A DNA stretch of 64,000 bases from Amoebidium appalachense (GCA_963693365.1 CAVNZM010000009.1:4351146-4415145), one strand, 5' to 3'; shown: positions 15,001 to 18,000, counted from the stretch's first letter. The notes: generated by a model not told the origin, from the letters alone. Translations and numbers: made by a program.

Positions 15001-18000
15001 TGATGTTCCATATCCTTGGTGTAAGCCTCGCAAAATCTGTTGTGCGCTGTGAGAGTGTATTGTGTACTCTGTGTGACAGAATCTTAACACCCCCCCCCCC
15101 CCCTCCCTCTGCCGCCGCCACAACCTCCTCCCCCCCCCCCCCCCCCCCCTCCCCCCCCCCCCCAAATGCATACATGACCGCCATATCTTCCTCACTGTCT
15201 CTTCTGCTTGCATGCTTGCAATCTTTTGATGCAAGGAACCTTACCCCCTCTCTCCTCCCCCCCCCCCCTCCTCCCCTCCCGCCCACCACCACAACAAAAT
15301 CACCACAACCACAAACCTCCTCCTCCCCACCCCACCTCACACACGTACACACACACGTACACAAACACTTACACGTACACGCACACACACACACACACAC
15401 GTACACACACACACACACACACACGTACACACACGCACGTACAGGCTGCCGGTGGCTACAGCACCATCATCGTCATGTCGTTCTTCTTCACGATTGGCCA
15501 GGCCGCATTGCTGATATCTGATTGGTGGCTGAGTTACTGGGCAAATCCAAACCATGCAGCTAACCATGAGAACTCAAGTATTGCTATCTATGCAGGGATT
15601 GTCGTCGGTATTGTGTCCCCCCCCCCCCCCCCCCCCCCCCCCCCCCCCCACACACACACACACACAGACACACACACATCACATGTGCACGCACACACAC
15701 ACACATACATACATGCACACGCACACGCACACACACACACGCACACACACACACACACACACACACACACACACACACACACACACACACACACACCTCT
15801 TCCTCCTCCTTCTCCACAGCTGCTTTTAAGGAGATGTTTCTATGCCACACAGGCATGCTTCGTGTGTGTGTGTGTGTGTGTTTGTGTGTGTGTGTGTGTG
15901 TGCGTGTGTGTGCGTGTGAGTGCGTGTGTGTGTGTGGAGGGGGGGGGGGGGGGGGGGGGATGTGCACGTGTGTGTGCCTGTGTGCACACCTGCTCATTAC
16001 TTTCCTTTTTCGGAGAAAATGTCTTTGCACATAACCAACTTATACATCATTTAAATGGTGCTATTCTTAGTTCTCTCAATAAATCAACGTCCAGCATGTA
16101 AAACTGTTTTTGCATGAGGAATGAACCCTATTTGAGCTAACACCCGCCAAAACTGCTTGCAGCGCTGATCGTGATGTCCAAGTTCCGCGCGATCTACTTC
16201 TTCAACAAGAGTACGTTTGCATCCCAGCATGCCCTCCATGTGCCTACGTCATTGCACCCCAATGTACCCCCTATGTGCCTACGTCATTGAGCCCCAGTGT
16301 ACCCCCTATGTGCCTACGTCATTGCACCCCAATGTACTCTTCTCTCTATATACCTACGTCATTTTTTTACTGCCATGTATCCCTAACTGCCGTTTCAACA
16401 TGGCATCCACTCTAGCTTCCCCTCCCCTCACATTTCCTCCCTTTTGGTCGCCTTTCCCTTCTTTCTCGGTGCACTTCATTTTGATAAGGGTTTCCCGTCT
16501 GTGATTCCAAAATACAACCACACCTACCAGCCTTACTCAGAGGGCATCCATACCTCTTCCTTCTGTCCCTCCACCCACCTTCCCCACGTCCCTTTCGTAC
16601 ACATTTATTTTTGTCTGTTTTGTTTTTTGTTTTTCTTTCTTTTTCCGTAGTGTGCGTAGGTGTGTGCGTAGGTGTTTTTGAGTTTTGAGGGGGGAAGCCC
16701 CAGCCCCCCCCCCCCCCCCCCCCCCCCCCCCCCCCCCCTCTTCCCCCTCGATGCAGTAAAAATTATCTTCACATGCTCTTCCTATTTCGTTGCAACACCT
16801 CTCGTCCCTCTCTCACCTTCTCCTCCGTGCCTCCCCCCCCCCCCCCCCCCCCCCCAACTCCTCCTCCCATTTCCTTTCCTTTGGTTTTTGGACGGCCTTT
16901 ATTGCCATAATGGTAGATTGTTGGAGGACTCCTTTCGACTACTGCCATATCACGACATGGACATATGCACACACACATGCGCTCGATTGCTGTGTGTGCT
17001 CATGTGCAGATGTGTGTATCGGGTTGTATATGTTTGATCCTAAACTTCCAAACCTCCACCTCACCGGGACCTCTACACGCACACGCATACACACACATGC
17101 ACAAGCCCCCGTACGCACACACGCTCACACTTAAATATATATATGTATATATCCCCACCCCCCCCCCCCCCCCCCCCCCCAAACACAGATACACACATAC
17201 ACGTGAACACACACACACACACACACACACACACACACACACACACACACACACACACACACACACACACACAGCTCTCGACTCCTCCCGCAACCTCCAC
17301 AACACTATGTTTGAGAAGGTCATGCGGTCTCCCATTTCTTTCTTCGACGCAAACCCTGTCGGGAGAATTCTTAACAGATTCAGCAAAGATATCGGTATGC
17401 CCCCCCCCCCCCCCCGTCTCCTGAGTTCCTATCTATATTTTTCTTGCTTCTGCTTACTGCTGCAACTTTAACCCCCGGCCTTTCCCACTGCCCTTGCCTG
17501 CATAAGCAACCCTGCTCGTCTCTGATCAAGACGGGTGACCTACTCATGTTCAAGTGAAACAGTATCTGAGTTGGGTTTCGTTAACGAGGGGAATAGGTCG
17601 AAACTCGGGTACTGTGGATGACGTGGGCCCCCCCTGAGGATGGGCTCTGCTTATTATGCATACTCTTTATGTATGGCTTGCATTCTGCATCGTGTTATCC
17701 GTTTGTTCTTGTGTACTTCGTACTTTTTGACGCATTCAAACCCCCCCCCCCCCCCCCCCCCCCTCCCCCCTCCCTCCCCCTCCCCCTTCTCTTCCCCCTC
17801 CTCCCCCTTCTCCTATACTTTCCCACCACTCCCACCGGAAGAAAAAGGAATGAAGAGAGGACGAAAGAAGAAATAGGAAAACAAAAGTTCCGGCATCACA
17901 ATTATCTGGTGTGTGTGTGCATAGACAGGTGTGTGTGTTTATGGGGGGGGGGGGGGGGGGGGGGGGGGGGGGGGGAGGGGATGCATGTGTGTGTGTGGAG

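Follow-up and report, generated by a model that had tools for sequence, protein, structure and literature searches.

What kind of RNA is dispersed along a 64,000-nucleotide stretch of DNA from the ichthyosporean Amoebidium appalachense (GCA_963693365.1 CAVNZM010000009.1:4351146-4415145; the whole stretch is called the window below), and how did it spread? The original prediction, made from the sequence alone, described a mobile, non-coding element in two subfamilies, A on the plus strand near 5791 and 17475 and B on the minus strand at 56086-57013, which differ in sequence but keep the same helices, and proposed that selection acts on the RNA fold, as for a ribozyme or a structure that recruits reverse transcriptase. 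We find a complete but re-wired hammerhead core with a predicted cut after GUU (17572|17573), in an element that likely spread as part of a Naiad/Chlamys-type Penelope-like retrotransposon, either its 3′ end or a non-coding form derived from it, a reading to which we assign a probability of about 0.7. Copy, pairing and substitution tests support a mobile RNA selected for its structure, and the suspicion of hammerhead-like core strands in a non-canonical topology proved sound, with a complete core in S-G-C order; the RNA is, however, a hammerhead variant and not a new ribozyme class. The parts of the predicted fold in the copy near 17475 are as follows.

17502..17654 (+): predicted ribozyme domain, closed by P1 (17502-17508/17648-17654) and P2 (17510-17512/17642-17644)
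17515..17535 (+): P3 hairpin of 7 bp with the palindrome TGATCA in its loop; P2 and P3 are inserted between A9 and G10.1
17537..17542 (+): 5′ strand of stem II, starting at G10.1 and supplied from upstream, pairing with 17594-17599; a weak Rfam Hammerhead_1 alignment gives the same pairing
17543..17627 (+): P4 (17543-17549/17621-17627), which connects stems I and II at their far ends, and a GA-rich internal loop leading to stem III
17559..17575 (+): block S, from the 5′ strand of stem III to U16.1 (17571), with N17 = U17572 and a stem I strand at 17573-17575
17576..17593 (+): linker from stem I to stem II, holding a small self-complementary hairpin
17594..17615 (+): block G, with the 3′ strand of stem II, C11.1 = 17599, G12-A13-A14 = 17600-17602 and the 3′ strand of stem III from A15.1 = 17603
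17631..17641 (+): split block C, with the 3′ strand of stem I (17631-17633) and CUGAGGA (17634-17640), then U and P2 where stem II would be expected

The complete core (GAGUU|GG, C-GAAA-C and CUGAGGA, with stems I–III in register) is present in 4/4 full copies. GAGUU with GAAACUC gives the A15.1-U16.1 pair and a NUH cut site at the end of a stem III of 7–13 bp. Stem II, which is the crossing pairing GACCTA/TAGGTC of the original prediction, starts with G10.1-C11.1 and has 5–6 bp, with a two-sided change between subfamilies at position 5; CUGAGGA is preceded in all four copies by a stem I strand, and stem I (3–4 bp) likewise has a two-sided A/B change. In hammerhead numbering we take GAGU to be 16.4-16.1, the next U 17, GGG/GGAG 1.x, CCC/CUCC 2.x, CUGAGGA 3-9, the upstream GACC 10.x, GGUC 11.x, GAA 12-14 and ACUC 15.x. 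The strands follow one another as P2-P3-[stem II 5′ strand]-P4-[S]-[G]-P4′-[stem I strand + CUGAGGA]-P2′. This W-S-G-C order is neither the canonical, pseudoknot-free C-G-S circular order nor a type I hammerhead. A descriptor search (below) calls G10.1 non-contiguous with A9 in all four copies, and the letters 3′ of A9 pair as P2. Judged from its sequence, the element is a non-circularly permuted hammerhead in S-G-C order whose block C is split between A9 and G10.1. One obtains its fold by joining the ends of type SGC into a ring and cutting that ring open within block C, a circular permutation in which helices P2 and P3, rather than the backbone, connect A9 to G10.1. One extra nucleotide between A9 and G10.1 is tolerated in viroid hammerheads.

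All six originally claimed pairings were found in the sequence where they had been placed, and 40/40 pairs shared by A and B are retained both in the 17475 copy and in B, despite the sequence difference. Two details needed correction: CCCATGT/ACGTGGG holds for the A copy at 5791, while the copy at 17475 reads CTCATGT, and the long helix has 13 bp in the latter copy, carries two mismatches in the former and ends in a pair (U17/A14) that is unpaired in a hammerhead. Two helices were absent from the original account, namely stem I (GGG/CCC in A, GGAG/CUCC in B) and P2 (CCC/GGG). The 10 A/B substitutions at paired positions amount to four two-sided and two one-sided changes, the two-sided ones lying in stem I (G-C to A-U), stem II (U-A to C-G), P4 and stem III. 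Because the registers of stems I and II are set by the hammerhead consensus and each has a two-sided A/B change, we count these in favor of a hammerhead. When substitutions were placed at random, every pair was kept in 144/1,000,000 trials and four compensated doubles arose in 5/1,000,000, in a test that is post hoc and draws on only two independent subfamilies. In a MAFFT alignment (A1) of three distinct rows, with stem I counted as 2 pairs only, 99.1% of 114 cells pair vs. 30–47% in slid controls, and 18/500 shuffles do equally well.

The core itself is rare by chance. A descriptor asking for the core letters and for stems III, I and II of at least 4, 3 and 4 bp, in any strand order within 200 nt, was run over the window in both orientations (128 kb) and picked out the four full copies and nothing else. 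Among dinucleotide shuffles, 3/20,000 of A and 3/20,000 of B had a match, 0 of them in the element's order, and only two of 120 viral loci preselected for the three core motifs reached minimal stems in that order. These two loci (L092 and L131) are weak matches that by eye lack P2–P4, and we treat them as chance. We regard the fold as almost certainly conserved, and site-specific cleavage at the predicted position, which is deduced by analogy with known hammerheads, as probable.

Rfam gave no match in the whole window at the gathering score, as the original prediction would have it, and at E ≤ 10 returned only chance-level rows (three for A and three for B), including a Hammerhead_1 alignment at E = 1.9 and 14.2 bits vs. 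a cut-off of 34. Hepatitis delta virus-like, twister, twister-sister and pistol ribozymes and C/D small nucleolar RNAs were set aside by eye against their consensus, and an intact type SGC was rejected because just 2 pairs form 3′ of A9. A metagenome search returned 15 loci with no relatives among them, two of which carry an ordinary type II hammerhead; viral contig searches gave 0, 0 and the 120 loci above, and prokaryote genomes gave 0. Ordinary type II-like hammerheads were seen in these metagenome and viral contigs (L003 at 3850-3956, L012 at 3894-4000, L043, L078 and L116).

How does the element compare with described hammerheads? It shares with canonical types I–III (Rfam CL00010) the core letters, the A15.1-U16.1 and G10.1-C11.1 pairs and the NUH cut site, but its order is not a circular permutation of theirs. 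The closest systems are the non-circularly permuted types SGC and CSG of PMC10085705 (this and the other papers cited below, apart from Rfam, are drawn on in excerpt). Type SGC has the S-G-C order, two core pseudoknots, a linker from stem I to stem II and all core letters, as the element does, and its helix between the distal ends of stems I and II corresponds to P4. In that work block C is intact and was assumed to be uninterruptible, which gives six types, whereas in the element it is opened at A9/G10.1, with P2 and P3 inserted and the 5′ and 3′ ends placed there. SGC and CSG cleave in vitro, SGC at 0.007–0.19 per min; according to the excerpts, SGC was found only in metatranscriptomes and CSG in two metagenome sequences, and neither in the genomes of known organisms apart from a doubtful GCS case (PMC10085705). 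Our literature search, in which subscription journals were little covered, returned no description of a split block C or of permuted hammerheads in Naiads; the excerpts of PMC3088659, PMC6155905 and PMC10162972 contain none, and those of PMC13725137 mention variants with additional helices, for which three papers are cited there. Prior work covers Penelope-derived retrozymes, the ribozyme class and the SGC cycle; the split topology and the Naiad link appear to be new.

That link comes from published Naiad elements. According to PMC8557442, Naiads have no canonical hammerhead, and some hold "HHR_core" or "HHR_half_core" motifs that fit no descriptor. We searched its consensus file (File S5) for four CUGAnGA variants and judged the folds by eye, unscripted; the counts are lower bounds, line breaks may hide motifs, and the remaining entries are left unassigned. 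The split-block-C fold is present in at least 10/54 Naiad consensus 3′ untranslated regions (UTRs), from coral, jellyfish, acanthocephalan and octopus. Carriers are Naiad_Plae and the entries preceding the headers Naiad_Aacu, Naiad_Anas, Naiad-1_Movir, Naiad_Plae, Naiad_Ovul and Naiad_Omin (three Acropora, Morbakka-2 and two Octopus, judging by their order in the file), with one more each near parts 9 and 19 of the file; the entry preceding Naiad_Mley has a partial fold, with a stem I of 2 bp and P2 out of view. The stems are wholly different from those of the element: stem II is GGCUCC/GGAGCC, GGCCCC/GGGGCC or GACACC/GGUGUC, stem I is UAGGAU/AUCCUA, GAGGAG/UUCCUC or UUUUC/GAAAA, and P2, CCC/GGG in the element, is GGGG/CCCC, AACUGU/ACAGUU or AGAGG/CCUCU. 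An intact type CSG occurs in at least six other Naiad 3′ ends, mostly nematode by file order (the entries preceding Naiad-2_Nbra, Naiad-3_Nbra and Naiad_Hcon, and others near parts 13, 15 and 16). Several entries near parts 16–19 (spider, horseshoe crab or ostracod by file order) hold CCCCUGAnGA cores without an assigned wiring, and in one of them stem II seems to form locally, as a hairpin lying between S and G, possibly a further kind of wiring.

Does the core assemble within one molecule? The arm formed by P4 and stem III would make a U-turn at a GA loop resembling a kink-turn (k-turn), bringing the parts of the core together in cis. An alternative is a ribozyme that works only in trans, blocks S and G of one unit docking on block C and the stem II strand of the next, which would spare single copies in introns. 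The 13-bp stem III arm of A has a long turn-back, palindromic loops occur in the P3 and linker hairpins of both A and B, and salamander retrozyme hammerheads work as dimers (PMC7229834), all of which fit that scheme. Folding within one molecule is nevertheless favored because the lengths of the stem III and P4 arms covary across examples (~5/5 in octopus, 13/10 in coral), as a U-turn in cis predicts, and because the hinge has a k-turn-like GA motif in B and in the octopus form; most Naiad loops among the entries shown are, moreover, non-palindromic. We consider a trans-only ribozyme quite improbable.

Several results weigh against the overall reading. Nested folding energy is weak (z = −1.4, −1.5 and −2.6, with −3.8 for the reverse strand of B), and the nested minimum-energy folds differ, the proposed scaffold lying 8–17 kcal/mol above them when stems I and II are left out of account (their duplexes contribute −3.7 to −8.7 kcal/mol each, initiation included). 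Stem I is only 3 bp in A, where a rival 8-bp helix of −8.9 kcal/mol can hide GAAA. Across contigs, positional variation does not show the core to be clearly more conserved than its flanks, and the one run that is certainly RNA (X17), of which a small share was covered as contigs only, gave no element match. The window contains no Penelope open reading frame (ORF) by Pfam on 72 + 8 ORF segments and a motif search, the 72 being drawn from 108 listed segments of which those left out are mostly repeat-derived, other frames of a long interspersed nuclear element (LINE) or already scanned; the partner reverse transcriptase (RT) was not found, and no search was aimed at it. The Naiad folds were read by eye, the Chlamys excerpts yielded only recognizable canonical Chara hammerheads and the split-block-C fold in none, and Naiads with the fold prefer (TA)n where a target is listed, whereas (C)n is a Chlamys trait (PMC8557442). 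Finally, in an Anolis Penelope-like element the hammerhead needed protein to cleave and was dispensable for insertion in vitro (PMC11167929).

Some of these points would also be expected if the fold were real but silent or protein-dependent here, serving as a docking or packaging signal for the RT. The GUU cut triplet is slower than GUC, A combines a short stem I with a rival helix, and at least five element copies lie in introns on the sense strand; the protein requirement in Anolis fits as well. A strand bias of C-runs (35:8 and 34:10), however, predicts the sense orientation of the intronic copies, and intronic retrozymes are common elsewhere (~43% in Xenopus; bioRxiv 10.64898/2026.07.22.740005). 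Against silence stands the retention of all core letters in A, in B and in Naiads of several phyla despite full turnover of the stems, and we judge this alternative unlikely, if somewhat less so than one confined to action in trans.

How the element moved can be read from its copies. BLAST within the window finds four full cores (at 5793, at ~17475 and in two B units) as well as five copies that are truncated or decayed, and the features are these.

17412..17740 (+): subfamily A copy, 5′-truncated at an internal CCCC and ending ...ATTCAAA before poly(C), on the sense strand of an ABC-transporter intron, with an X9 contig match
17655..17740 (+): 3′ tail common to all copies, its end fixed at ATTCAAA beside poly(C); putative RT start
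5793..6054 (+): another subfamily A copy, with truncation at an internal C5 run and the cut predicted at 5886/5887
56086..56537 (−): subfamily B unit of 452 nt starting with C7, on the sense strand of a PDZ-domain gene intron; predicted cut 56286/56285
56538..56989 (−): second B unit, matching the first at 452/452 positions; predicted cut 56738/56737
56990..57014 (−): third B unit, 5′-truncated to its tail, making a partial tandem that resembles a pseudo-long terminal repeat (pseudo-LTR)
106..139 (+): tail-only copy within a poly(C) tract
21030..21150 (+): older truncated copy, beginning just 5′ of CUGAGGA
59092..59201 (−): older truncated copy, beginning at the C-run 5′ of the core
59350..59456 (−): decayed truncated copy
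10590..10627 (+): decayed tail remnant (E = 0.014)

Intact copies have ATTCAAA followed by C at the 3′ end, 5′ ends lie at C-runs inside the element or at single matching C letters, and C-rich tracts flank 8/8 insertion sites, with pure poly(C) at the four youngest. The start originally placed at 17475 is too far downstream: this copy begins at ~17412-17416, and other copies run at least 434–500 nt further 5′. An X9 contig (record 17) has no differences over 17412-17731 and extends 434 nt further, and X12 contigs extend subfamily A by 500 nt 5′ of 17412 at unchanged depth. The frame 5′ of subfamily A is short and ends in a stop, too short for interpretation. Within subfamily A, TTTAACCCCC at 17460-17476 resembles the element's own 3′ end plus a C-run, and many copies truncate there, which hints that A may itself have been assembled from joined modules. 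In the public run X2 there are 8,042 contigs on the A stretch and 10,425 on that of B; summed depth, which is no copy number, is 1e5–1e6 on the element vs. 9.2 on unique flank and drops toward the 5′ end of B. Together with four full cores in 64 kb, the X2 depth suggests a copy number on the order of 10^4.

Copying by a LINE also gives 5′ truncation and a fixed 3′ end, and an intact two-ORF LINE lies at 35600-40130 (+), so an ordinary short interspersed nuclear element (SINE)-like passenger with coincidental hammerhead letters would account for part of this pattern. That LINE terminates in (CA)n and has no similarity to the element, the tRNA scan gave 0, in agreement with the originally noted lack of a standard SINE head, and the B unit has no Rfam match, although the true 5′ end of A is unseen. 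With a chance rate of 1.5e-4 per shuffle and the recurrence of the fold in Naiad 3′ UTRs, a SINE-like passenger is largely refuted and the least credible account. The original prediction also allowed that the element might be the 3′ UTR of an ordinary LINE; the window LINE is unrelated, while subfamily A may be the 3′ UTR of a longer, Penelope-like element.

A Penelope-type partner is very likely. Like Naiad and Chlamys elements, the copies show 5′ truncation, partial and head-to-tail tandems, (C)n insertion and very high copy number, and their fold recurs in Naiad 3′ UTRs; unlike those elements, which encode an ORF with an N-terminal GIY-YIG, a CxC motif and RT, the copies seen here have none. 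Chlamys in particular combines (C)n and (CA)n insertion and 5′ truncation with head-to-tail non-autonomous forms, including MRC1, and the described hosts are animals for Naiads and green algae, spike mosses and a slime mould for Chlamys, whereas the host here is an ichthyosporean (PMC8557442). Animal non-LTR retrozymes, which have been proposed to derive from Penelope-like elements and to pass through circles, share with the element non-coding tandem units some hundreds of base pairs long, with one hammerhead each; they differ in having a type I hammerhead, <50% GC and demonstrated circles, whereas the element has a re-wired ribozyme, a poly(C) target and putative circles (PMC7229834; bioRxiv 10.64898/2026.07.22.740005). 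Retrozyme units measure about 150–450 bp, and the B array has this retrozyme-like build: 2.07 identical head-to-tail units of 452 nt, each non-coding (its sole listed ORF segment has no Pfam match) and each with one ribozyme, the predicted cuts being 452 nt apart.

We propose that tandem transcripts would be cut once per unit into B monomers of 452 nt, whose ends would be held by P1, P2, P4 and stems II and III and might be ligated into circles. With cut products paired through five helices, re-ligation would be favored and harm in introns limited. A Penelope-type RT acting in trans would use a nicked poly(G) strand for priming, at the C-run directly 3′ of ATTCAAA, a point inside the RNA and away from the ribozyme cut, and would copy round the template to leave partial tandems ending at C microhomologies. 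The start of reverse transcription likely lies inside the RNA because the genomic copies have their 3′ end at ATTCAAA|C rather than at the cut, and a lizard Penelope-like RT also initiates inside its RNA (PMC11167929).

Whether the template is circular is evenly balanced. The joint between B units recurs in runs X10 and X13 and is spanned by X12 and X13 contigs, and B contigs close on themselves at 452–453 nt (X10, X13; a junction-spanning contig also occurs in X12), which tandem DNA could also yield; runs X12 and X13 are of uncertain kind, DNA or RNA. Both B units carry the same rare letters at 56118, 56367 and 56383, where ~99% of X2 summed depth differs, as expected if a single template was copied twice. 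The rival view concerns mobilization only: tandems would arise without any RNA circle, from linear multimers, template jumping or local DNA duplication, and A would simply belong to an autonomous Penelope-like element as its 3′ UTR. Penelope-like elements ordinarily leave partial tandems (PMC8557442), recent duplication or assembly polishing could explain identical B units, and the ≥500-nt extension of A at even depth in X12 fits a longer element; the generality of the B joint across runs, the self-closing contigs and the private letters pointing to one template stand on the other side. We hold a route without a circle to be possible, at a little below even odds.

On balance we lean toward a broader proposal, though with less confidence than in cleavage or in the partner. 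The split at A9/G10.1 with its k-turn-like hinge would be a seventh natural hammerhead topology and the standard ribozyme of the Naiad clade and its relatives, from ichthyosporeans to molluscs, beside CSG in other Naiads. This clade would have re-wired its hammerheads rather than lost them, and in Amoebidium the ribozyme would drive ~10^4 circular-RNA retroelements whose clamped cut ends make them tolerable in introns. A split block C breaks the assumption that caps hammerheads at six permutations, and would place non-circularly permuted ribozymes in eukaryotic genomes, which the excerpts of PMC10085705 do not report. It also addresses a point left open in PMC8557442, where the Naiad core motifs fit no descriptor and hammerheads in Penelope-like elements are read as dispensable or parasitic. 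It further implies that descriptor- and Rfam-based censuses overlook a high-copy class of genomic ribozymes, predicts a cut site to the single nucleotide together with rescue mutations, and opens a new site within the core at which ribozyme engineers could make insertions.

The surrounding sequence is rich in genes and repeats. Element copies lie on the sense strand in introns of an intron-rich ABC-transporter gene (1-25600, +) and of a PDZ-domain gene (~55460-56060, −), both with introns full of poly(C) and (CA)n; a PDZ exon had zero cover in X12, X13 and X10, which is uninformative on expression. The LINE has an 18-nt tandem repeat at its 5′ end and a second copy at 62915-64000 (+) that matches it without a difference across 1,086 bp. 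A EukProt protein listed under Amoebidium parasiticum matches 69% of the length of the LINE's ORF2 at 99% identity; besides this and one relative at 46%, ORF2 has remaining matches of at most 31% identity, which marks the LINE as a divergent lineage. A 250-aa frame at 33165-33914 (−) has no Pfam match at E ≤ 0.01 and contains a motif that we take to recall the hAT transposase dimerization region. Intron-free frames without a Pfam match lie at 41150-42010 (+, 287 aa), 44952-45590 (−, 213 aa) and 58009-58866 (−, 286 aa). The window also holds a 115-bp two-copy tandem at 49104-49333 and a 212-bp direct repeat, partly microsatellite, at 27147-27358 and 28193-28403.

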